Shown: positions 40,445 through 51,665 of the stretch, in pieces
Layout: each line of letters opens with the position of its first letter
Position numbering within the stretch: position 1 is the stretch's first letter
Source of the DNA: an uncultured Trueperaceae bacterium
GTDB lineage: Bacteria; Deinococcota; Deinococci; Deinococcales; Trueperaceae
DNA: 64,000 nt
NCBI GenBank assembly: GCA_963815215.1
Contig: CAWFFU010000003.1
Span: 1,056,001-1,120,000, forward strand
Direction of reading: 5' to 3'
The notes under the pieces: model-generated
Told to the model about the DNA's origin: nothing
Seen by the model: only the letters and a program-made list of their open reading frames with translations
The model's database searches: none
Translations under genes and position numbers: made by a program

Positions 40445-41602
40445 ATGCACCAACGACGACACGCACCCCCGGCACTCCTCACGCTTCTCCTGGCGCTCGC
40501 TCCCCTGGCCCACGCGCTCGACGCCGCGCAGGTCGCCCCTGCCTTGGAGGCCCGCTTCCCCCCCAGCGCGGCGTACCTGGATTGTCCGTTCGACGGCAAG
40601 GCACGGACCTGCGTCCTCATCCCCCACGCCACGAGCCTGCGGCGTGCCTACACCGACGTGCTGGCGTTCGTCCGGGCGCTACCCGACGTCACCGCCATCG
40701 ATGGACATGGAGCCCCGTCCTCAGCGGCGTTCGTCATCGGCGACACGGCCTACCGGCTGACGCTCGCCCGGAGCCGGGCGCGAGCGGGCGCCGTTGCGGC
40801 GACCCTGCGCTTCGCATTCGATCGGCAGAGGGCCTTCAACGTGGCCTGCCTCCGCCCCGAGGCACTCTTCGACGACGCGCGTCTGGGCTCGATGGACGCC
40901 GCCACCTACGGAACGATGACCACCGCCATCGCCTGCCACGGGGCCGACACGGTCGACAGCCTCGGCCGCACCCCCCTGACCATGGCCGTTCTCAGCGGTA
41001 ACGTGCGGGCGGTGCGGGTACTGCTGCGCGGCGGAGCGGATCCGAACCACATCACGAAGAGCGGCTGGACCCCACTGCTGTTCGCCGCCCGAGCCGGCAC
41101 TCGCGTCATCCTGGACACACTCTTGCTCGCTGGCGCCGATCCGAGCTACTTCGCCCCCGACGGCTCGACGGTCGACACGCTCGAGCCCTTCAACCCGCAC
41201 CTCAGCGTCCACCCCGGTCTCGACGCGGCAGCACGAGCCGAAACCGGGCCGATCCGGCCGGCCGCCCTCTCGTGGACGCCCGGGACGAGCGCACCGGCGC
41301 TGCCACCGGCGGCCTCCGCCCCGGCGAACGCAGGCGGGACCGACGCGGCGACGGTCGCCCGCAGATCCCCGCCGCGCAGCGGATCGCGACTCCCCGTCGT
41401 CGTACTGGAGCTGCTGGCGCTGGGCACGATCGGCGCCCTGGCCGTCCTGCGCCGGCGCCGCGGCCCGTCCGACTCCGGCCCCGTTGCGGTGAGCATCACG
41501 CAGCCCGATCTGCCGGCGATGCCGGTACCCGGACCCTTCCGGCGACACCGTTCCGGCCGCCGCTTGGAGCCTGCCCCCCGCTCGGACGACCGGCCGCTGT
41601 GA
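40445..41602 (+). CDS. Secreted, membrane-anchored ankyrin-repeat protein
   Basis: Signal peptide AHA|L, GRTPLTMAV and GWTPLLFAA ankyrin repeats, C-terminal TM followed by RRRR. Confidence 0.8.
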   Translation: MHQRRHAPPALLTLLLALAPLAHALDAAQVAPALEARFPPSAAYLDCPFDGKARTCVLIPHATSLRRAYTDVLAFVRALPDVTAIDGHGAPSSAAFVIGDTAYRLTLARSRARAGAVAATLRFAFDRQRAFNVACLRPEALFDDARLGSMDAATYGTMTTAIACHGADTVDSLGRTPLTMAVLSGNVRAVRVLLRGGADPNHITKSGWTPLLFAARAGTRVILDTLLLAGADPSYFAPDGSTVDTLEPFNPHLSVHPGLDAAARAETGPIRPAALSWTPGTSAPALPPAASAPANAGGTDAATVARRSPPRSGSRLPVVVLELLALGTIGALAVLRRRRGPSDSGPVAVSITQPDLPAMPVPGPFRRHRSGRRLEPAPRSDDRPL

Positions 41603-41621: not shown

Positions 41622-42497
41622 CTAGCGGATGCGTGGGTCCAGCACGTCGCGCAGCCCGTCACCGAGAAGGTTGAAGCCGAGGACGGCGAGACTGATCGCC
41701 ACGCCGGGCGCGATCGCCATGATGGGATCGATGGCGAGGTAGAGCTGAGCTTCGCTGAGCATCGCCCCCCACTCGGGCGTCGGCGGTTGGACCCCGAGTC
41801 CGAGGAACGACAGTGACGCCGCGATGAGGATCACCGTACCGATGCGCAGCGTGATGTACACGAGGATCGGCGCCAGGATGTTGGGTAGCACGTGCCGGAA
41901 CATGATGCGCGCGGAGCTCGCGGCCAGCGCCTGGCTCGCTTCGACGTAGGCGCGCTCCTTGAGCGCCAGCGCCGAGCCTCGCACGAGTCGCGCGAAGATC
42001 GGGATCCCGAAGATGGTGGTGGCCAGGATGACGTTGCGGAACCCCGGCCCGGCGATCGCGATGATGCCGATCGCCAGCAGCAATCCCGGGAACGCGAGCA
42101 AGATGTCGGTGATGCGGCCCGAGAGGGTATCGAACCAGCCTCCCAGGTAGCCGGCGAGCAGGCCCCACAGGCCGCCGATGAGTGCGCTGAAGCCCGTTGC
42201 CAGGACGCCGATGCTCAACGAGAAGCGGGCGCCGACCAGCGTGCGGCTGAGGATGTCGCGGCCGTAGTTGTCGGTGCCGAGCCAGTGCGCCTCCGAGAGG
42301 GGCGCGTTGACGTGCAGGTAGTCGGCCTGTGCCGGATCGTAGGGCGCCAACAGGTGGCCGAAGAACGCCATGAGGACGAACACGGTGGTCAGCACCAGCC
42401 CCGTCATGCCGCTGCGGTGGCGCCGGAAGCGCCGCCACAGATCGCGGCCCCGGCTCTCACGGGCGGGCGTGGGCGTCGTCGACGCTGCGTCAGTCAT
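41622..42497 (-). CDS. Peptide/glutathione ABC permease (DppC/GsiD-like)
   Basis: HWLGTDNYGRD, LSFLGLG, PEWGAML. Confidence 0.93.
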   Translation of the reverse strand: MTDAASTTPTPARESRGRDLWRRFRRHRSGMTGLVLTTVFVLMAFFGHLLAPYDPAQADYLHVNAPLSEAHWLGTDNYGRDILSRTLVGARFSLSIGVLATGFSALIGGLWGLLAGYLGGWFDTLSGRITDILLAFPGLLLAIGIIAIAGPGFRNVILATTIFGIPIFARLVRGSALALKERAYVEASQALAASSARIMFRHVLPNILAPILVYITLRIGTVILIAASLSFLGLGVQPPTPEWGAMLSEAQLYLAIDPIMAIAPGVAISLAVLGFNLLGDGLRDVLDPRIR

Positions 42498-43410
42498 AGC
42501 GGATCCTCGGATCGAGGGCGCCGTAGGTGATGTCCACCAGAAGGTTCACCAGCATGAACTCCAGGGCGAACAGCAGCAGCAGGACCTGGAGCACGGCGTA
42601 GTCGCGGAAGCCGATCGACTGGATCAGCAACCAGCCCAGGCCCGTGAAGTTGAACACGGTCTCGATGACCACGGCGCCCCCCAGCAGGAATCCGAACTGC
42701 AGCCCGGTCATGGTCACTACCGGGATCAGGGCGTTGCGAAGGGCGTGCTTGTAGGTGACCGCGGTGTAGCCCAGCCCCTTGGCACTGGCGGTGCGCACGA
42801 AGTCCTCTCCCGACACTTCGAGGAAGCTCGATCGTACGAAGCGCGCGATGGTCGCCAGCGGCGCCAGCGCCAGGCTGATCGAGGGCAGCACGAGCCCGCG
42901 CAGGCTGACGTCCCCGGTCACCGGGAACCAGTGCAGGTCGACGGCGAACAGATAGATGAGGAGGATCCCGAGGAAGAACGAGGGCACGCTGATCCCGGTG
43001 GCCGAGAGCCCCGTGACCACCAGATCGAGCCACGAGTTGCGGCGGGTGGCCGCCATCACCCCCGACAGCACCCCGAGCACGAAGGCGATGACGATGGCGC
43101 TGGTGGACAGCAGCAAGGTGGGCAGGAAGTGTTCCTTGACCACCTGCAGCACGGGCACCTGCTGCCGGTAGGACAGGCCGAAGTCCCCGTGGACGGCGTT
43201 CCGAAGGAAGTAGAGGTACTGCACCGGCAGGCTGTGATTGAGGCCCAGCCGCACCCGCATCGCCTCGACGTCGGCGAGCGTCGCGTCCTGGCCGGCCGCC
43301 AGCCTGGCGGGGTCGCCCGGGATAGCGTGGATGAAGAGAAAGACCGCGATCGAGACACCGATCAGCGTCGGGATGAGCTCGAGCAGTCGCCGGATCAGAT
43401 AGCGCCACAT
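42490..43410 (-). CDS. Peptide/glutathione ABC permease (DppB/GsiC-like)
   Basis: IPGDPA, KHALRNALIP, GAVVIETVF, LDPRIR. Confidence 0.93.
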   Translation of the reverse strand: MWRYLIRRLLELIPTLIGVSIAVFLFIHAIPGDPARLAAGQDATLADVEAMRVRLGLNHSLPVQYLYFLRNAVHGDFGLSYRQQVPVLQVVKEHFLPTLLLSTSAIVIAFVLGVLSGVMAATRRNSWLDLVVTGLSATGISVPSFFLGILLIYLFAVDLHWFPVTGDVSLRGLVLPSISLALAPLATIARFVRSSFLEVSGEDFVRTASAKGLGYTAVTYKHALRNALIPVVTMTGLQFGFLLGGAVVIETVFNFTGLGWLLIQSIGFRDYAVLQVLLLLFALEFMLVNLLVDITYGALDPRIRYD

Positions 43411-43432
43411 GATAGAGGGTCGTCAACGAGCC

Positions 43433-43462
43433 GGAGCCGGCCCGCTGAGGCGGGCCGGCTCC
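43433..43462 (-). terminator. Intercistronic hairpin after the substrate-binding protein gene
   Basis: GGAGCCGGCCCGC-tgag-GCGGGCCGGCTCC. Confidence 0.65.
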
Positions 43463-43475
43463 ACTCGCGAAGGAC

Positions 43476-44993
43476 TTACTGCAGGCTCGCCGCCCGCGCG
43501 TCCACGGTGCCGTCGGGCATGTAGAACACGCCGCTCACGCTCTTGGAGACGCCGGCGATGTTGTACGGGCTGTACAGGAAGACCCAGGGAGCATCGTTCC
43601 AGATGGTCTTCTCGGCCGCCGCGTAGGCCTGGTTACGGATGTCCTGGTTGGCCGTGCTGAGGCCGTCGGCGATCAGCTTGTTGACGTTGGGGTTGTCGTA
43701 GAACGCCAGGTTGTACAGATCGGGCGGCCAGGAGGCCTTGTCGAACAACGGACGCAGGCCCCAGTCGGCGTCGCCGGTCGACGGCGACCAGCCGATGACG
43801 ACCGCCTGCAGGGTGGTCTTGTCGAACGGCGCGAACACGGTGCTGGAGAAGGTGCCGCTCTCCATGGGGTTGATCTTGGCGGTCACCCCGACCTTGGCGA
43901 ACATCTGCTGCAGCACCTGGTCGATCTGCTGGTAGGTGGTGCTGTTGAGCGAGTCGATGGTGAAGGTGAAGCCGTTCGGGTAGCCGGCCTCGGCCAGGAG
44001 CTGCTTGGCCTTCTCGGGGTCGTACGCGTAGGGCGTCTGCGCGGAGTAGCCCGTGACCTGCTTGGCGATGGGAGCGGTCAGCTCGGTGCCGAAGCCCTTG
44101 GCGATGACGTCGACGATGGTCTTCTTGTCGACCGCGTAGTTGAGCGCCTGGCGCACGCGCTGGTCGTTGAACGGCTTGGCCTGGGTGTTCATCGCCATGT
44201 AGCGCACGTAGATGCTCGGCTGGGCGGTGACGGTCAGGTTGGCCGCCGACTTGATGGGATCGACGAGCTGAGGCGGCAGGTCCTCGATGAACTGCACCTC
44301 ACCGCTCTGCAGCATGGCCACGCGGGTGGCGGCGTTCGGGACGAACAGGAACTGCAGCGTCTCGACCTTGGGCGCATCGCCCCAGTAGTTGGGGTTGGCC
44401 TTCAGGACGACTTTCTGACCGGGCGTCCAGCTCACGAACTCGAACGGGCCGGTGCCGACGGGGTTCTTGGCCACGTCCTTGCCGTACTTCTTGATCGCCG
44501 CCGGGCTGACGATTCGACCGGCGGGGTGAGCGAAGGTGTAGAGCATCGCGCCGAACGGCTTGGAGAGCGTGAACTTGACCTGGTACTCCGACACCGCGTC
44601 CACGGACTTGATGACGTTGTACAGGCTCTCGCGCTTGAAGTGGTTGGCCGGATCGATGACCCAGTCGAAGTAGGTCTTGACCGCTTCGGCGTTGAAGGGG
44701 GTCCCGTCCTGGAACGTCACGCCCTTGCGCAGGTCGAAGGTGAAGACCGTGGCGTCAGGGCTGGCCGTCCACGAGGTGGCCAGCTCGGGCACGAGCTTCC
44801 CAGCCTTGTCGAAGCCGACCAGGCCTTCGTAGATGGGACGCTCGATGGAGAAGTCGAGATTCCCGTTGGTGTCCCCGGGGTTGAGCGTGATGGCGTTGCC
44901 GGACATCGCCACACTGACCGTGCCGCTCGCAGCGAACGCGGCGCCCAACGACAGCACGACCCCGACAACGAGGAGTAGAAGCGTCTTTCTCAT
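43476..44993 (-). CDS. Family 5 ABC substrate-binding protein (GsiB-like)
   Basis: Signal peptide, IYEGLV, FQDGTPFNAEAVK, GTGPF, GWSPSTGDADWGL. Confidence 0.92.
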   Translation of the reverse strand: MRKTLLLLVVGVVLSLGAAFAASGTVSVAMSGNAITLNPGDTNGNLDFSIERPIYEGLVGFDKAGKLVPELATSWTASPDATVFTFDLRKGVTFQDGTPFNAEAVKTYFDWVIDPANHFKRESLYNVIKSVDAVSEYQVKFTLSKPFGAMLYTFAHPAGRIVSPAAIKKYGKDVAKNPVGTGPFEFVSWTPGQKVVLKANPNYWGDAPKVETLQFLFVPNAATRVAMLQSGEVQFIEDLPPQLVDPIKSAANLTVTAQPSIYVRYMAMNTQAKPFNDQRVRQALNYAVDKKTIVDVIAKGFGTELTAPIAKQVTGYSAQTPYAYDPEKAKQLLAEAGYPNGFTFTIDSLNSTTYQQIDQVLQQMFAKVGVTAKINPMESGTFSSTVFAPFDKTTLQAVVIGWSPSTGDADWGLRPLFDKASWPPDLYNLAFYDNPNVNKLIADGLSTANQDIRNQAYAAAEKTIWNDAPWVFLYSPYNIAGVSKSVSGVFYMPDGTVDARAASLQ

Positions 44994-45138: not shown

Positions 45139-47610
45139 TCACGCCTGCGCGGGACCGCGAGGGGGCGTAACCTCCTCGCGGCCGCGCTGCACCCTGGCGC
45201 GCGCCAGGGCCCGGCGCGGGTCCCCCGGGGGGAGGGCGCCGACGGCAGCCTCCCACAGCTCGAGATCGTCGTGAAGCCGATCGGCGAGATCGAAGAGCGC
45301 ATCCGGGTCGGCCGCGTCGAGAGCCGCCTGGCGGAGCTCCTCTTCCAGGATCCAGCGCTGTTCCTCCACGCCGAGCGCGTCGCTCTGGGGGAGGAGGGGG
45401 CCGCGCAGCAGCGTGATGGCCTCACGGACCCGCTTCTCGAGGAGGTGGCGCCGCGCCTGAAGGATGTCGGCGGTGTACGCCACGGTGAAGCGGTAGGGAG
45501 CGTCACTCACCGGAAGCAGCGCCCGGAGGCGGGTGAGCGTGGCCCGCATCCCGCTGGGCGACAACCCGGCCGTGCCATCGGGCGCCAAAAACGCGCTGAG
45601 CTCCTCGCGAGCCATCCCGTCGGGGTGGAGCGCCAGCGCCAGCGCGGTCTCCGCCAAGCGCGGCCCGAGCCCGATCTCCTTGCCGTCCAGGCGGCAGGAC
45701 ACGCGCCCTAGGAACTCCAGCCGCAGCTCGGCGCGTACCGGCACGAGCGTGTCCCAGACGATCTGGAAGGCCGAGGCCGGGCCGCTGAGCACGCGCAGGG
45801 CGACGCCGTCTAGCCCGCGAAGCGCCTCGGAGACATCGGCGGGAAGTCGGTGCCAGCCACCGGGATCGGCCAGCAGGTAGTGGAGGGCCCCCGAGAGGCG
45901 TTGCTCGGCGGGCAACGATCCGTCGAGCACGATCCCCAGCAGGTCGTCGACGGCGCCGGCGGCGTCGCCCTTCAGCGCTCGCACCATGCCTCGCGCCAGG
46001 ACCCCGAGACGGCCGGCATGCACGGAGGCATCGTCGCCGAGCTCGGCGGCGACCTCAGCCATGCGGGCGGCCTCGTCGTAACGCCCGAACTCGTTCAGGC
46101 AGCGCACGAGCTGGTAGGCATACCGCGTCCGAAGCGACCGCGGGCTGCCTTCGAAGGTCGCCCGCATCAGCTCCAACGCCACCTCCGGCCGGCCGCTAGC
46201 CTGTTCGAACCACCCGAGCGTGCTCCGGTACATCGCAGCAAGGTCAGGCAAGCTCCCCTCGATGGAGGCCTGACCGTCCTCCAGGCCACGCCGCAGGCCT
46301 GCCAGATCCCCGCTGAGGATGCGCGCCACCGCCAGGTTGTTGAATAGCATCAGACGGCGCGCGCCGTCCCGGAGGCCGTTCTGGTCGAACACCTGGAGCG
46401 CATACTCCGCCCAGGAGCGGCCGCGTTGGAACTGGCCCAGGTGCACCAGCCGGTCGGCCAGGACGCCGGCACTCCGTGCAACCTCGTACGGCGTGCCGGC
46501 CTGCTCCGCCAGGCGCACGCTCTCCTTGAGCACTTCGACCGCCCGGTGCGCATCGGGGTGCATCCGCCCGTATTGCCACAGCGTCAATGGCGTGCGCCGC
46601 GCCCGCACGGCGGCCTCGGCCAGCGGGAAGCCGGCCTCGCGCGGCAGCGTGCCCGCGCGGCGCGCGCGCAGCTCCGGGGCCGTGAACGCCTCCAGGTGGG
46701 TGTCGACTTCCTCGACCATGGTGCGCCACTCGTTGGTCGCGAAGGCAGCCAGGAAGCGCCACTCCAGCACACGCTCCAGAGACCGGTAGGGCTGGGGCAG
46801 GCTCGAGAGGAGCAGATGCAGCCTGGGGAGCGCGCCCTCGTCCTGATAGGCGGGGCCTGCCGAGCGCAGCAGGTCCTCCGCCATCTCCGGCGCGGCGCGC
46901 ACGGCCAGCTCGAGAGCGTCGACCGGGCGCCCCTCGCGCTGGAGCGCCAGCACCGCCAGCGGCACGTCGACGGCTTCGGCCCGGCGCCGCGGAAGCACCG
47001 GCCCGAGTGGCGTCGGGATGGGGAAGCGCGGCAGCTGCGCCCGTTCGTGACTGAGCGACAGGAGGTCGGTGAACCGCCCTCCTGTCGCACGTCGAATGGC
47101 CTCCAGCTCACCGGTGGAGAGGCCACCGGGAGCGATCATGGCTGCATCTTCGCGGGTCACGGCGAGCTCGGGCGGGCCCAGCACCAGGCACCGATCGAGA
47201 CCCTGCACCTCCGGCGGCACATCCGTCTCGAACCCCAGTAGCACGCGGTAGCCGAAGTCGGCGAGCTGCACCAGCTCAGCCGCGAAGGCGGGCGCGACAT
47301 CGGCTCCGGAAACCGCGATCCACAGCGGTTGAAGGTCGTGCCGATACTGCCGCAACGATCGCAGGTGCGCCCGGTAGGGCAAGGCGTGCGACAGGAGCGA
47401 CTCGCCGAGCTGCCGGTTCACCGCGCTCGCGAGAGCGTTGCCCTGCGCCACCGCGTCGTCGCGCGCGCGCTGAGACAGCGCGACCCAGGCCAGTCGCTCC
47501 TGCTCACCGAGCGCGTCGATGAGGAAGGGAACGCCGTAAGGCTCGCCACCGAGCAACGCCACCGGCCGTTCGCTGGCGACGATGCGATCGAGCTGACGCT
47601 TCAGCCACAC
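45139..47610 (-). CDS. Large regulator: degenerate MalT-like N-terminus, helical TPR-like core, C-terminal winged-helix/BTAD-like domain
   Basis: GGEPYGVP resembles a Walker A lacking Lys, then LAWVAL..DD. Helical repeats (LFNNLAVARILSGD). C-terminus LRLEFLG...ALALHPDG...LTRLR...RGPLLP. TATGCT lies 6 nt before GTG. Confidence 0.75.
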   Translation of the reverse strand: MWLKRQLDRIVASERPVALLGGEPYGVPFLIDALGEQERLAWVALSQRARDDAVAQGNALASAVNRQLGESLLSHALPYRAHLRSLRQYRHDLQPLWIAVSGADVAPAFAAELVQLADFGYRVLLGFETDVPPEVQGLDRCLVLGPPELAVTREDAAMIAPGGLSTGELEAIRRATGGRFTDLLSLSHERAQLPRFPIPTPLGPVLPRRRAEAVDVPLAVLALQREGRPVDALELAVRAAPEMAEDLLRSAGPAYQDEGALPRLHLLLSSLPQPYRSLERVLEWRFLAAFATNEWRTMVEEVDTHLEAFTAPELRARRAGTLPREAGFPLAEAAVRARRTPLTLWQYGRMHPDAHRAVEVLKESVRLAEQAGTPYEVARSAGVLADRLVHLGQFQRGRSWAEYALQVFDQNGLRDGARRLMLFNNLAVARILSGDLAGLRRGLEDGQASIEGSLPDLAAMYRSTLGWFEQASGRPEVALELMRATFEGSPRSLRTRYAYQLVRCLNEFGRYDEAARMAEVAAELGDDASVHAGRLGVLARGMVRALKGDAAGAVDDLLGIVLDGSLPAEQRLSGALHYLLADPGGWHRLPADVSEALRGLDGVALRVLSGPASAFQIVWDTLVPVRAELRLEFLGRVSCRLDGKEIGLGPRLAETALALALHPDGMAREELSAFLAPDGTAGLSPSGMRATLTRLRALLPVSDAPYRFTVAYTADILQARRHLLEKRVREAITLLRGPLLPQSDALGVEEQRWILEEELRQAALDAADPDALFDLADRLHDDLELWEAAVGALPPGDPRRALARARVQRGREEVTPPRGPAQA

Positions 47611-47809
47611 ATCAAGAGCATACCGGCACGGGCTCGGGCTCCCGCTCGTGCCGGCGCGCGGGCTGCGCCGCGCGTCTCCCGAGCGTCCGAGCGATCACGC
47701 GCGGGGAGTCTTGCGCCATCTCCCCTGCACCCCTCTTCCCCGGAAGGAGCGCGCAGCGGACGCGACCGCGCCTGACTCCGCGGTCGATGGTCGCGATCGA
47801 TCCTCGCGC

Positions 47810-48001
47810 TCAATCGCCCGAGGCGGCCGCCCCTTCGAACGACGCCGCAGCGACGGGCGGACGCTGGCTCGCCGCCGACCGCTCGCGACGGATCGCGTTG
47901 ACGGCCGAGAGCAGACCCAGCTCTCGGATCAGCACCTGGTCCCCGACGACATCGAACGACCACGTTCCCTCCAGTCGCTCGAGGGCTTCTTCTCGCGTCA
48001 T
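47810..48001 (-). CDS. 63-aa hypothetical protein
   Basis: AAGGAGG RBS 5 nt before ATG; MTREEALERLEGTWSFDVVGDQVLIRELG... Confidence 0.7.
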   Translation of the reverse strand: MTREEALERLEGTWSFDVVGDQVLIRELGLLSAVNAIRRERSAASQRPPVAAASFEGAAASGD

Positions 48002-48032
48002 ACCGACCTCCTTGTTCCTCTTCTCAAGGTGC

Positions 48033-48117
48033 AGGGTAGGCCCCGGAGCGCTCCACACCCGCTTCACCTCGAAACGGTGGGCTTGAAGCGGGGTTGAAGC
48101 GGCCCCCCACGTACGCT
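48033..48117. promoter_or_regulatory. Divergent promoter pair with TGAAGCGG direct repeats at 11-bp spacing
   Basis: Plus: TGAAGCGG at 48084 and 48095, then 9 nt, then TACGCT. Minus: TGAAGCGG (48059-66) and TGGAGCGC (48048-55), then 9 nt, then TACCCT. Confidence 0.7.
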
Positions 48118-48177
48118 CCAGCTAGCTTCACAGGGTCAGAGACAGAGGAGACCCACGGGGAACCCAAGGAGGACGTC

Positions 48178-48321
48178 GTGCCCACGCTCAAGAAGATGAT
48201 CCGTAGCCTCATCGTCGCGCTCGTGTTGATCGGCTCGGCCGCCGGCGGAGTCACCGTCGCCCACCAGAGCATGACGCTGGCTGACTCGGGGAGTCAGTCC
48301 GGCAACCTCGACGCCGGCTGA
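48178..48321 (+). CDS. 47-aa secreted propeptide (candidate signalling peptide)
   Basis: AAGGAGG RBS; MPTLKKMIRSLIVALVLIGSAAGGVTVAHQSMTLADSGSQSGNLDAG* has a basic n-region, a hydrophobic h-region and a short polar tail. Confidence 0.78.
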   Translation: MPTLKKMIRSLIVALVLIGSAAGGVTVAHQSMTLADSGSQSGNLDAG

Positions 48322-48420
48322 GCGTGCGGCACGGGGCGTAGCGCCCCATCGACTCGCGCCTCGCGGCCTATCGGTCGCGGGGCGCGTCGCCCCCTTGGGG
48401 AGGCGGGATCTTACACCGTC

Positions 48421-49224
48421 ATGAAGTACGACCCCATCCACGTTCGCTACCCCCGCCTGCAGGATCTGCGCTACCAGTTCCAGCCGATCGAGTCGGCCGG
48501 AGACGGGGTGGTGCGCTGGTACGAGGCGCTGGTGCGCTGGCACCTTCCCGACGGCACCGTGCGCGGGCCGTTGGACGTGCTCCCCTACTGGCTCACCCCG
48601 ACCCGCAGCGAGGCCTTCACGAGATTCACCGTGGCGCGCGCGGCGAACGCATTGCTCGGCTCGCCGGGCGCGCGCCTGAGCATCAACCTCAGCCCCGCAC
48701 AGGTCACGCAACCGGCGGCGATGCACGCCCTTCGCAGCCTCAACCCGGAGCTTCAGCAGCGTCTCGTGGTGGAACTCACCGAGCAGCAGATCCGGAACCT
48801 CGACGCCTACTGGCAAGGGCTCGAGGGCGTGCGCGAACACTGCGCGCTACTGTTGCTCGATGACGTGACCTTCGACGATCTCGACCACCGCTTCCGCAAG
48901 GGCGCCCCGGTCGATGGCATCAAGCTCGACCGCAGCTTGCTGCCCGCGCTCCTCGGCGGTACCTACCACCGGCGCGCCGTCGATCTGGTCGAAGATGCGC
49001 TCGATCGCTTCGGCATCGTGGTCGCCGAGGGCGTTGAGGACCCGACCGCGCGCCAGCAGCTCGCAGAGCTCGGCATCACCCATCTCCAGGGTTTCGGCAT
49101 CGGCACGCCCTCGGCCACCATCCCGCTCGAGGCTCCATCGGTCGAGGCCGATGCGGCTCCGGTCGGCGTCGAGCGGCCGCGCTCCGCCGACCGTTCGCGC
49201 CCGGGCTCGGCCCCAAGCGAGTAG
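48421..49224 (+). CDS. Stand-alone EAL-domain protein (c-di-GMP phosphodiesterase family)
   Basis: FQPI, YEALVRW, SINLS, VELTE, LDD, IKLDRS, VAEGVE, LQGF. Confidence 0.9.
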   Translation: MKYDPIHVRYPRLQDLRYQFQPIESAGDGVVRWYEALVRWHLPDGTVRGPLDVLPYWLTPTRSEAFTRFTVARAANALLGSPGARLSINLSPAQVTQPAAMHALRSLNPELQQRLVVELTEQQIRNLDAYWQGLEGVREHCALLLLDDVTFDDLDHRFRKGAPVDGIKLDRSLLPALLGGTYHRRAVDLVEDALDRFGIVVAEGVEDPTARQQLAELGITHLQGFGIGTPSATIPLEAPSVEADAAPVGVERPRSADRSRPGSAPSE

Positions 49225-49238
49225 GGCGACCGAGCGAG

Positions 49239-50072
49239 GTGTCGGGGGAAGACGAACAGAGCGGCCGCCGGACGTCGGGCGCCCGTTCGCAAGGTTCGCT
49301 CCGGGAGCGGGTCGAGCGCACGACGGCCTGGGGAGAGCTCCGGGTCGTGCGCGAGCTCTCCAGAGCGAACCGCAATCCCGTCCTGCTGGTGGAACTCGGC
49401 GGCGAGCCCTTCGTCGCCAGGGAGACGCGACGCAGCGCCGAGGCGCTGAGCTGGCTCGAGGCGGTGCACGCCCAGGCCCGTGAGGTCGGGCTCGTGACGC
49501 CGGACGCCGTGCGCAGTCGAGACGGGAACCTCGTGGAGGACGGCGTCTCGCTGCAACACTTCATCGAAGGTCGGCCCCCCGATGCGCAGAACCTCGCACG
49601 GCTGCGCAGCCTGCTGAGAAGCCTCCACGAGGCGACCCGCGGTGCCCGCCAGCGCCCGGGCTTCGCGTCCAGCGCTGCGTTGGTGCGCCAGCCGCGCGCG
49701 GGTGACATCGATCTGTCGACCATGCCGGCGGACGTGGTCGGGGCCTGCCGGGCCGCGTGGGAGCGCCTCGCCGACGCTCCGCGATCGGTCGTGCATGGGG
49801 ACCTCCGCCGTGAGAACATCCTGGTGACACCGGACGGAACCGTGGCCCTCGTCGACTGGGACGAGGCGCGTGTGGACGCCTCGATCCTCGACGAGGTCGC
49901 CCTGTCCATCGCACTCGGCGGCCGCCCGCGGCCGGGGTGGGAAGCCGCCGAGACCGCGCTGCGGGCCTGGGAGGTCGCGTCCTGCTGGGGTCTAGAGCCG
50001 AACTACGCGCGCCGCCTGGCCGCCCGCCTGCCGGACCTGTTCGGAGGCGACGGCGCCGCTACCACCCCATGA
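49239..50072 (+). CDS. APH/choline kinase-like phosphotransferase
   Basis: VHGDLRRENIL and LVDWDEA motifs. Confidence 0.85.
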   Translation: MSGEDEQSGRRTSGARSQGSLRERVERTTAWGELRVVRELSRANRNPVLLVELGGEPFVARETRRSAEALSWLEAVHAQAREVGLVTPDAVRSRDGNLVEDGVSLQHFIEGRPPDAQNLARLRSLLRSLHEATRGARQRPGFASSAALVRQPRAGDIDLSTMPADVVGACRAAWERLADAPRSVVHGDLRRENILVTPDGTVALVDWDEARVDASILDEVALSIALGGRPRPGWEAAETALRAWEVASCWGLEPNYARRLAARLPDLFGGDGAATTP

Positions 50073-50141: not shown

Positions 50142-50726
50142 TCAGCGATTGGGCGGGCTGAAGCGTGTGCCGGGCTGGTGGATGCCCATGCCGGGACCGC
50201 CCCGGTTGCCCGACTGCCAGCCCTGGCCGGCGCCGCGTTGCGCCTGCGCGCCCATGGGGCTGCGGTCGCCACTCATGGCCGCCGAGCCGAACATTCCGCC
50301 GGCACGAGGGCCGAGCTCGCGGGTGAGCATGGAAGCGATGGTGGTCGGGGTGCGGCTCTTCATCTGCGCGGCCCGCTGCGCGTCCAACGTGCCCGCCGCT
50401 ACCGCGGCATCGATGCGCGCGTCGCGCTCCGCCACGAGCGTAGCGCTGGCGCCGGCGGTCGTGAGACCGTGCTCGACCAGCAGGTCGGCAACGGTCTTGC
50501 CGCTCTGGCGCTCGGCCACGAGGGCGTCTTCAGAGATCCCGAGCAACGCCGCGAGGTCGGCGTGCGATCCGCCGACGATGCCGGCGACCGGGCCGCGGGT
50601 GCCGGCGGTGGTGCCCTGCGGGCCGGCGAAACGCTGAGCCGTGCGGGGTCCGTAGGCGAGCGCCATCGACGCAACGAGTGCGGCGGCGAGCGCGAGGCTG
50701 AGGGCGAGGGTCCGGTTCCGGATCAT
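50142..50726 (-). CDS. Secreted Gly-rich hypothetical protein
   Basis: Signal peptide, LAALLGISEDAL..GKTVADL and AVAAGTLDAQRA patterns, GAAGGAG RBS. Confidence 0.75.
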   Translation of the reverse strand: MIRNRTLALSLALAAALVASMALAYGPRTAQRFAGPQGTTAGTRGPVAGIVGGSHADLAALLGISEDALVAERQSGKTVADLLVEHGLTTAGASATLVAERDARIDAAVAAGTLDAQRAAQMKSRTPTTIASMLTRELGPRAGGMFGSAAMSGDRSPMGAQAQRGAGQGWQSGNRGGPGMGIHQPGTRFSPPNR

Positions 50727-50888
50727 GGTGGTCTCCTTCGGAGGGACCCTGGGTGGTTCGACGCGGGTCCCGATCTCGTCCGTAGCGTAGGTCCGTGCGC
50801 GGGAAGGTTGGGAGGAGGGTTCGTGAACGATCGACGAAGGGCCGGAGGGCGCAGTGGCCGGCGACGCATCACGGTAGGCTGGGCGCCG

Positions 50889-51665
50889 ATGACGGACGTG
50901 CTCGTTCTCGCCCAGGTGATCCTCGCCGCCGGCCTGATCGTGGTCGGCGGGATGGTGGAGGGGTATGGCTACGGCCTTTCGCTCGGCACGCGCTGGCCCT
51001 ACACGCGCAACATCGCGGGGCTGGCGTTCGCCGGTGACCCCGAAGCCTGGCACCGGATCATCGCTACGCTGCTCGGCCTCAACGCCCTCGCCATCCTGGC
51101 GCTGCACCCCGGCGCGCTGTCCTGGACCGGTCTCGGCCTCATCGTCTTCACCGCTCTGCTCGGCATGGCGACGCTCTTCGTACTGGCCGGCAAGGCTCCC
51201 TCCCCGCTGCAGGGTCTCCACGGCCTTCTCGCCTACTCGACCCTGTTCACCTACCTGCTGATCCTGACGCACGGACCCGGCCTCGGGTTCTACCTGGAGA
51301 CGGGCGTGCCTCTGCACTCCTTCCTGCTGGTGATCTTCATGGGAGGCGTGGTCACGGGGCAGCGGGGGTTCGGCAAGGCCATCGGCGTGTTCACCTGGCC
51401 GCGCTCCCTGGCCCAGTGGGCGTGGATCGTGCACGGCCTGGCGGTCCTGCTGTTCCTGCTCACGCTGGCCTACGAAACGCCGACGAACAACGTCGCCCTG
51501 CTGTTCCTTCTGGCACAGGTCGGGCTCGGCTTCCTCACGTTCCAGGCCGTCAACGCTTCCTCCGAACGACCCGGCGCGTTGGTCCCCTTCCATCAGCTCC
51601 TGTCCGTCGGGATCGCGATCGCGCTGTTCTACCACCTCCAGGTCCACGTGCCCTGGCTCGGCTGA
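50889..51665 (+). CDS. Heme A synthase-like (COX15/CtaA family) membrane protein
   Basis: EAWHR motif, several intramembrane His residues, about 8 TM helices. Confidence 0.6.
   Translation: MTDVLVLAQVILAAGLIVVGGMVEGYGYGLSLGTRWPYTRNIAGLAFAGDPEAWHRIIATLLGLNALAILALHPGALSWTGLGLIVFTALLGMATLFVLAGKAPSPLQGLHGLLAYSTLFTYLLILTHGPGLGFYLETGVPLHSFLLVIFMGGVVTGQRGFGKAIGVFTWPRSLAQWAWIVHGLAVLLFLLTLAYETPTNNVALLFLLAQVGLGFLTFQAVNASSERPGALVPFHQLLSVGIAIALFYHLQVHVPWLG

Follow-up and report, generated by a model that had tools for sequence, protein, structure and literature searches.

Examination of a 64,000-nucleotide stretch of DNA from an uncultured Trueperaceae bacterium of the phylum Deinococcota (assembly GCA_963815215.1, contig CAWFFU010000003.1, positions 1,056,001 to 1,120,000; hereafter the window) revealed a cassette of four genes, in which an 823-amino acid regulator and a 63-amino acid protein are encoded on one strand and a 47-amino acid putative propeptide and a stand-alone EAL protein on the other. 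We read it as a self-contained peptide-signalling cassette that follows the logic of the RRNPP systems of Bacillota and their phages while being built from different parts, and we give this reading a probability of about 0.55. An initial annotation, made from the sequence alone, had proposed an analogous but architecturally different peptide circuit around three of these genes. All three open reading frames (ORFs) were recovered where it had placed them (Table 1), the EAL gene also by Pfam, and the proposed circuit gained support from tandem peptide cores, a Rap-like tetratricopeptide-repeat (TPR) core in the regulator, SARP-type operators, a complex prediction and the loss of the peptide pocket in paralogues. 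The domain folds, the conservation of the genes, the multi-core precursors, the conservation and uniqueness of the operators and the predicted interface were all computed.

By analogy with RRNPP systems, the 47-amino acid product would be exported by means of its N-terminal signal-like segment and cut to a peptide of about 12 residues with a free C-terminal D-x-G, two to four copies being released per precursor in some relatives. The peptide would then re-enter the cytoplasm through a general oligopeptide permease and bind the TPR sensor of the regulator, where an arginine-rich pocket would clamp its aspartate and terminal carboxylate. Once released by binding, the regulator would use its C-terminal SARP module to assemble on the TGAAGCG heptamers, which form two pairs, and would activate both divergent units. 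The peptide-EAL unit would provide positive feedback together with breakdown of cyclic dimeric GMP (c-di-GMP), and the unit formed by the 63-amino acid gene and the regulator would provide auto-amplification. Export, cleavage, re-import and density dependence are carried over from the known systems; we also infer activation rather than repression, the activity of the EAL protein and a role for the 63-amino acid protein, which could be a cytoplasmic adaptor or anti-activator of the regulator.

Table 1. Features of the cassette and of its surroundings (window coordinates)
Feature	Position	Strand	Basis or remark
Four-gene core cassette			EAL and 47-amino acid peptide genes (+) against 63-amino acid and 823-amino acid regulator genes (-)
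Receptor-activator, 823 amino acids	45139..47610	-	ORF; MalT-like nucleotide-binding oligomerisation domain (NOD), TPR sensor and C-terminal SARP module
MalT-like NOD and arm, residues 1-299	46714..47610	-	VIA alignment
TPR sensor domain, residues about 275-600	45811..46786	-	VIA alignment
Predicted peptide pocket, residues 283-379	46474..46764	-	Predicted interface and conservation
SARP module (OmpR-type winged helix and BTAD helices), residues 625-815	45166..45738	-	Model and Foldseek
63-amino acid gene, first of the regulator's unit	47810..48001	-	AAGGAGG 5 nt before ATG; 199-nt gap to the regulator ORF
Predicted operator pair facing the 63-amino acid gene and regulator	48049..48066	-	Two heptamers, 11-bp spacing, one mismatch
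Predicted operator pair facing the peptide-EAL unit	48084..48101	+	Exact TGAAGCG-N4-TGAAGCG, 77 nt before the peptide start
Conserved -10-like hexamer TACGCT	48112..48117	+	10 nt after the proximal heptamer; same-genus alignment block
47-amino acid propeptide gene	48178..48321	+	ORF; GTG start, AAGGAGG 5 nt upstream
Last 12 residues, predicted mature peptide ending D-x-G	48283..48318	+	Tandem repeats
Stand-alone EAL protein	48421..49224	+	Pfam EAL E 3.9e-33; 99 nt downstream of the peptide gene, co-directional
SBP_bac_5 binding protein and two permeases	41622..44993	-	Pfam SBP_bac_5 E 9.8e-106; no ATPase gene
APH-fold kinase gene	49239-50072	+	Directly after EAL; in the window and its closest relative only

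The conserved cassette and its predicted propeptide

Clustering of the ORFs of all the loci collected (numbered L001 onwards) revealed one recurrent order across Trueperaceae, with the EAL and peptide genes on one strand and the 63-amino acid and regulator genes on the other. Genes outside this core change between genera, and the flanks include isocitrate dehydrogenase, an aminotransferase, an ATP-binding cassette (ABC) exporter and an M3 oligopeptidase, among others. Orthologues of the regulator occur in all nine genomes of the same genus and in 20 of the 24 other genomes of the family. The EAL gene adjoins the peptide gene in nearly all loci. The 63-amino acid gene likewise lies upstream of the regulator in nearly all of them, its N-terminal 45 residues conserved and its tail variable; its product has no match in Pfam, NCBIfam, the PDB (profile search) or PHROGs, and its best Atlas score, 0.76, is below the level at which a match is counted. 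The peptide ORF had initially been described as divergent from the regulator, which is right as to the strands but not as to direct adjacency, the 63-amino acid gene standing between the two.

Loci of the peptide family were found by tblastn and with a hidden Markov model (HMM) built on the first 13 orthologues. The ORF, with its ribosome-binding site, is present at the same place and in the same orientation in 36 loci (35 distinct sequences and one identical copy), and one further copy is masked by a run of N. Homologous regulators without adjacent propeptides had been named as an outcome that would speak against the circuit; a propeptide gene was found beside nearly every orthologous regulator with enough upstream DNA. 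The ORF was not seen where the upstream side is cut short (L002/L021, L040, L048, L052, L016 and L018). Two further loci without it, L019 and L020, form a paralogue group of 30% identity, and L017 is a rearranged locus with only a weak peptide match (E 0.27). Metagenome-assembled genomes labelled Truepera radiovictrix also carry the cassette (L040, L054), so that a cultivated relative may be usable.

A profile search of a protein database with the peptide family returned 64 clusters, unnamed or annotated as 'hypothetical' and without any Pfam domain; the named clusters all belong to Trueperaceae. Every one of the 64 ends in D-x-G, and in an alignment of 29 sequences M1, D45 and G47 are the only invariant positions. 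The variable tail announced in the initial annotation does vary in sequence, but not freely: it is a unit of 9-12 residues with an invariant aspartate at position -3 and an invariant C-terminal glycine. The strong ribosome-binding site claimed for the ORF is also there. Relatives of the peptide have a positively charged N-region (34/34), a strongly hydrophobic 15-mer (32/34) and an acidic tail (31/34), features from which an N-in, C-out export of the precursor is predicted. Between close pairs of peptide genes, 79 differing codons are synonymous and 75 nonsynonymous, a ratio indicative of moderate purifying selection, which is what a signal peptide followed by a short core would be expected to show. 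As judged from sequence comparison, the 47-amino acid ORF is a real, conserved gene.

The most telling property of the family is the tandem duplication of its C-terminal unit. Six loci carry two to four copies per ORF, and among the 64 clusters 16 have tandem cores, namely fifteen two-copy forms of 69 amino acids and one three-copy form of 92 amino acids (counted by eye, since a regular expression overcounts cores that start with D-S-G or D-G-G). In L043 four units abut directly, which sets the unit length at 12 residues; in the other loci identical cores are separated by variable linkers of 9-13 residues. Between copies within one precursor, 17 variable codons are synonymous and only 1 is nonsynonymous, so that selection appears to act on the 12-mer itself. 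The tandem copies would thus mark a released 12-mer, each copy of which must presumably be cut free after its terminal glycine. An excerpt of PMC11343458 describes tandemly duplicated pheromones in Rap-Phr propeptides, which are matured by extracellular proteases.

Between the window and loci L003/L004, whose regulators are 88-90% identical to that of the window, the peptide core differs at positions 43-44, a difference that looks like pherotype divergence. The L003/L004 variant is also carried by the single contig (306 nt, covering 48194-48500) that was found in metatranscriptome run X20, from a salt marsh. This contig comes from a close relative and spans the peptide ORF and the start of the EAL gene; the rest of the stretch had no RNA cover. 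It is a weak hint of expression, as contigs from RNA libraries do not prove transcription.

The regulator, its operators and the predicted complex

Sequence searches say little about the regulator. Pfam yields sub-threshold matches to TPR_12 and TPR_19, NCBIfam gives no match, a PDB sequence search finds nothing below E 0.015, and the 144 database relatives are named just 'hypothetical' or 'TPR'; no mention of PF27103, the precomputed Pfam label of the family, was found in the literature. The structure model, computed with 30 homologues in the alignment, is confident (predicted local distance difference test, pLDDT, 91.7; predicted template modelling score, pTM, 0.89) and has no visible signal or transmembrane segment. 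A Foldseek search with the whole model is swamped by generic TPR proteins, with the STAND-plus-TPR protein 6mfv_A at rank 3, and the domain picture was drawn from VIA alignments and from a separate model of the C-terminus.

Three features read from the sequence in the initial annotation, a MalT-like N-terminus lacking the Walker A lysine, a helical-repeat core and a C-terminal winged-helix/BTAD-like region, were each borne out. Residues 1-299 align with MalT (8bob_C; Z 16.8, root-mean-square deviation (rmsd) 3.3, 279 residues aligned). The Walker A position reads G-G-E-x-x-G-x-P, and the P-loop is without lysine or Ser/Thr in all 30 homologues, with G21, E23, G26 and P28 invariant and G22 conserved in at least 90% of them. 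The core is a TPR solenoid. Its best VIA row is RapJ with the CSF peptide (4gyo_A; Z 22.9, rmsd 3.6, 318 aligned), followed by MalT domain III (1hz4; Z 22.4, over regulator residues 303-624), the Rap of phage phi3T with its pheromone (Z 21.4-21.7) and RapF-PhrF (Z 20.5); the generic TPR protein LGN scores Z 18.9, NprR Z 17.6-18.5 and AimR Z 15.5-15.7. Rap-type peptide receptors thus outscore generic TPR proteins by about 3-4 Z, a real but modest lead, and the likeness to RRNPP receptors could reflect common descent or just a shared TPR architecture.

The C-terminal 204 residues (620-823), folded separately, reach a pLDDT of 90.9. In a Foldseek search with this model the first six ranks go to SARP modules of AfsR and EmbR (E 3.5e-6 to 1.4e-4, TMq 0.56-0.69), and everything after rank 6 has E >0.06 and consists of bare OmpR-type winged helices or unrelated helical proteins. 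Sequence profiles agree in part: in the alignment of this region Pfam Trans_reg_C matches 7 of 26 members (best E 9.7e-6) and BTAD 3 of 26, and the profile finds AfsR (8hvr_I) at E 0.022. The VIA, Foldseek and P-loop results together lead us to model the regulator as a STAND scaffold of the MalT type in which the nucleotide site is degenerate, combined with a Rap-like sensor and a SARP output.

This assignment is matched by the DNA between the two units. According to an excerpt of PMC5930380, the classical SARP operator consists of heptamer repeats with 4-nt spacers, in units of 11 bp, bound by at least two monomers. The two heptamer pairs of the intergenic region (Table 1) have this SARP-type layout and are predicted operators. 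With at most one mismatch per heptamer and 11-bp spacing, the forward pair is found in 31 of 35 loci (it is absent from L013, L031, L015 and L051) and a pair in the reverse orientation in 24 of 35. In the window, none of 100 shuffles reached the observed number of matches. In the whole 3.3-Mb genome, at up to 1 mismatch, the pair occurs only at these two sites. Its uniqueness makes it seem that the regulator exists solely to control the cassette, and we infer that its control extends to two units and no more, namely its own and that of the peptide and EAL genes. A third, weaker match with 2 mismatches overlaps the start codon of the regulator (47597-47615, - strand) and may be a chance occurrence or an internal site.

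Scans of 47400-48600 found no sigma-70 consensus promoter (-35/-10) and no intrinsic terminator, and an Rfam scan of the same interval gave no family apart from a chance snoRNA row (E 0.97). The hexamer TACGCT is a candidate promoter element; its occurrence without a consensus -35 fits an activator-dependent promoter.

The initial annotation had suggested modelling the regulator with the C-terminal part of the peptide. A complex prediction with our own alignments of the regulator and of peptide residues 18-47 gave a score of 0.74 (runs of 0.75, 0.74 and 0.73), and three controls all scored 0.00; 116 of 157 solved complexes come up to the mark used to judge such scores, as do 2 of 215 mismatched pairs. 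Because structures of Rap-peptide complexes have been solved, resemblance to them may account for some of the score. The partner pLDDT is 39-40 and the runs share at least 32% of their contacts. Confident contacts involve peptide residues 42 and 44-47, that is, the invariant end, and regulator residues 286-287, 290, 295, 317-318, 320-324, 342, 345-346, 349 and 379. The model places the invariant C-terminus of the peptide in the most conserved, arginine-rich pocket of the regulator, made up of E283, R285, R315, R317, R318, G320, L342, W345, Q346, R349 and R379. These positions fall in the two most conserved motifs of the regulator family and are invariant in the 35 tabulated peptide-linked regulators, except that L015 differs at 318 and 320; positions 286-295 and 321-324 vary. 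The prediction supports binding of the peptide by the regulator, short of showing it.

Further support comes from three paralogous regulators: a copy that the same genome carries on contig 11, and the orthologues of this copy from two further genomes of the genus. Most pocket residues are replaced in all three, and neither a peptide gene (best HMM E 0.83) nor a 63-amino acid gene was found near them. The paralogue probably senses a different ligand. Its loci (L055, contig 11, 94650-97088; L056; L057) encode a regulator of 820-850 amino acids with about 31% identity, conserved in the genus, which adjoins a conserved gene for 180-186 amino acids and another Dpp-like ABC operon.

The putative output of the circuit is the EAL protein. 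Compared with the solved EAL domain of PA3825, it keeps the E, R, N, E-x-x-E, D-D, K, E and Q positions, which we take to be the metal-binding and catalytic residues, and may well have c-di-GMP phosphodiesterase activity. The genome has 22 GGDEF matches, so that a c-di-GMP network is present on which it could act.

Weighing of the alternatives

Several observations weigh against a signalling cassette of this kind. The cassette itself encodes no exporter, protease or importer, the adjacent binding-protein and permease operon is specific to the genus and has no ATPase gene, and the internal boundaries of the peptide repeats are not classical signal-peptidase sites. Deinococcota have complex, multilayered envelopes, and as Trueperaceae belong to this phylum the round trip of a peptide would be less straightforward than in Bacillota. 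The conserved 63-amino acid gene has no place in the proposed model. MalT-style, nucleotide-driven assembly may not apply to the regulator, given its degenerate P-loop, and in the EAL protein the stretch aligned to DDFGTGHSS of PA3825, presumably loop 6, is replaced and thus atypical. As for the strength of the evidence, helical repeats readily give high Z scores, the score of the complex is the model's own confidence in a partner whose fold is uncertain and of which the last five residues alone are placed, and the loci were drawn from related genomes, so that their counts overstate independence.

It is unlikely, in our view, that the regulator senses another ligand and that the exported peptide serves a separate purpose outside the cell, for instance in binding cations, in the envelope or matrix, or as an antimicrobial. 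The predicted interface would then be a false positive and the linkage a matter of co-regulation with EAL. The cores are indeed acidic, rich in G, S and D, and repeated, the partner is modelled with low pLDDT, predictions are promiscuous where TPR grooves are concerned, and the 63-amino acid protein could be the true partner of the regulator. Such a peptide, however, would leave unaccounted for that its invariant end is placed against the best-conserved motifs of the receptor, with all three controls at 0.00, that it is exactly the paralogues without a peptide gene that lack the pocket residues, and that the operator pair is unique to the cassette in the genome. Quite unlikely, too, is a peptide that is the ligand of the regulator without cell-cell signalling, the regulator binding the free C-terminus of the precursor, or a peptide retained in the envelope, and reporting the state of its own secretion or processing or acting as an autocrine c-di-GMP switch. 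A single-copy precursor ends in D-x-G even before processing, the predicted contacts require the last five residues alone, and neither importer nor protease comes with the cassette. Multi-core precursors, on the other hand, make sense only if internal units are cut free to yield new C-termini, the charge pattern, a positive N-region with an acidic tail, predicts translocation of the tail away from a cytoplasmic receptor, and a core that differs between relatives as close as the window and L003/L004 is typical of strain-discriminating signals.

Identical cores that recur between variable linkers are a common feature of the precursors of ribosomally synthesised and post-translationally modified peptides (RiPPs), and the small gene could be read as such a precursor, modified by enzymes encoded elsewhere, for example by the neighbouring APH-fold kinase, which weakly matches lanthipeptide kinase models. 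We regard this as very improbable. The matches (E 2.1e-5 to 8.8e-5) are far below the cut-offs of these models, a match to CcrZ models is likewise weak and sub-threshold, and the gene is confined to the window and its closest relative. Comparison of the flanks across loci revealed no protease, exporter, importer or modifying enzyme conserved with the cassette, and the N-terminal part of the peptide resembles a Sec signal rather than a leader peptide. Signalling by a released, re-imported peptide is the reading that we retain.

Neighbouring genes and comparison with known systems

The initial annotation had considered the ABC operon downstream of the regulator as the importer of the peptide. 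A dedicated role could not be upheld, as the operon adjoins the regulator in the window's genus only (L001-L010) and unrelated genes take its place in other genera; it is a possible importer and not part of the conserved cassette. The gene next to it lies on the other strand, and the importer may depend on ATPases encoded elsewhere. Genes for peptide handling occur near the cassette in some genera: a Peptidase_S58 gene lies between the 63-amino acid gene and the regulator in L018 (364-1419) and L051, a PepF-like M3 oligopeptidase is found near the cassette in 5 loci (examples of such peptide-handling genes are L053, 8725-10446, and L054, 6448-8817), and a fused ABC exporter is convergent to the regulator in 11 loci. 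These neighbours could be candidates for maturation, degradation and export, or reflect mere synteny within clades.

Other genes of the window lie further out. A 385-amino acid ankyrin-repeat protein (40445-41602, +) carries a signal-like segment at its N-terminus and a hydrophobic stretch at its C-terminus, an architecture that is unusual in bacteria. At 50142-51665 long ORFs overlap on opposite strands; the real genes seem to be those of a signal-peptide protein of about 212 amino acids (50142-50780, -) and of a multi-pass membrane protein (+, from about 50900), neither of which has a Pfam match.

Signalling through an exported peptide and a cytoplasmic receptor has been regarded as peculiar to Bacillota and their phages, and search tools are designed accordingly. 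If our reading is true, the known range of RRNPP-type logic would widen into Deinococcota, with a receptor of 823 amino acids, STAND regulators could take gene-encoded peptides as inducers, and peptide signalling would be linked directly to c-di-GMP. Literature searches on peptide quorum sensing in Trueperaceae and on RRNPP systems in Deinococcus yielded nothing relevant. At somewhat short of even odds, the cassette would be the first case of peptide quorum sensing by a cytoplasmic receptor outside Bacillota, in which a MalT-type STAND scaffold, a Rap-like TPR sensor and a SARP output are joined, a tandem-duplicable 12-mer is read by a carboxylate clamp on D-x-G, and c-di-GMP is switched with population density. 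Each step is directly testable, given the small size of the cassette, an operator predicted at no other place in the genome and a ligand that can be synthesised.

Among known regulators, MalT of Escherichia coli, a STAND activator composed of NOD, arm, sensor domain III and a LuxR-type helix-turn-helix, offers a close scaffold. The regulator has the same order of NOD, arm and TPR-like sensor followed by a C-terminal DNA-binding module (residues 1-299 corresponding to the MalT NOD and arm, 303-624 to domain III and 625-815 to the SARP module), which is the STAND order, and by analogy binding of a ligand to the sensor would be the expected trigger. It differs from MalT in lacking the Walker A lysine, in having a SARP instead of a LuxR output, and in that its predicted ligand is a gene-encoded peptide, whereas that of MalT is maltotriose. 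For the mode of binding, a parallel is offered by the TPR 'carboxylate clamp', by which Hop binds C-terminal peptides ending in EEVD. In the cassette, the prediction likewise has basic residues gripping an aspartate together with the free carboxylate at the end of the peptide; the analogy extends to the mode of binding alone.

AfsR and other large SARP regulators of Actinomycetota combine the same three kinds of domain (SARP, NB-ARC and TPR). AfsR is also the best match of the SARP module (E 3.5e-6, TMq 0.65-0.69), and direct heptamer repeats in 11-bp units serve as operators in an excerpt of PMC5930380 as they are predicted to do here. In the cassette the order of domains is permuted, with the SARP module at the C-terminus (625-815 of 823) and not at the N-terminus. 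Moreover, the regulator has no evident phosphorylation partner, is linked to a propeptide gene and belongs to another phylum.

With the RRNPP systems of Bacillota and phages (Rap-Phr, NprR-NprX, PlcR-PapR, AimR-AimP), the cassette shares a cytoplasmic TPR receptor encoded beside a small propeptide gene, a signal-peptide-bearing propeptide of which the C-terminal part is the active unit (here predicted), and the occurrence of precursors with tandemly duplicated pheromones, reported for some RRNPP members in the excerpt of PMC11343458. Rap-peptide complexes are, in addition, the best structural matches of its sensor domain (Z 20-23). RRNPP_detector, as described in an excerpt of PMC10075063, defines receptors as proteins of 250-500 amino acids and was applied to Firmicutes and viruses; with this definition and scope it would have missed the cassette, whose receptor at 823 amino acids lies well outside the range. 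Where RRNPP receptors have an N-terminal helix-turn-helix or a Rap-type effector bundle, the N-terminus of the regulator is a MalT-like NOD and its C-terminus a SARP module; Pfam, NCBIfam and PDB sequence searches gave no RRNPP signal for it. Its peptide, of about 12 residues with an invariant D-x-G end, its host phylum and its output, an EAL protein, also set it apart. The logic is that already known from RRNPP systems; what is new is the architecture of the receptor, the family of the peptide, the phylum and the putative c-di-GMP output.

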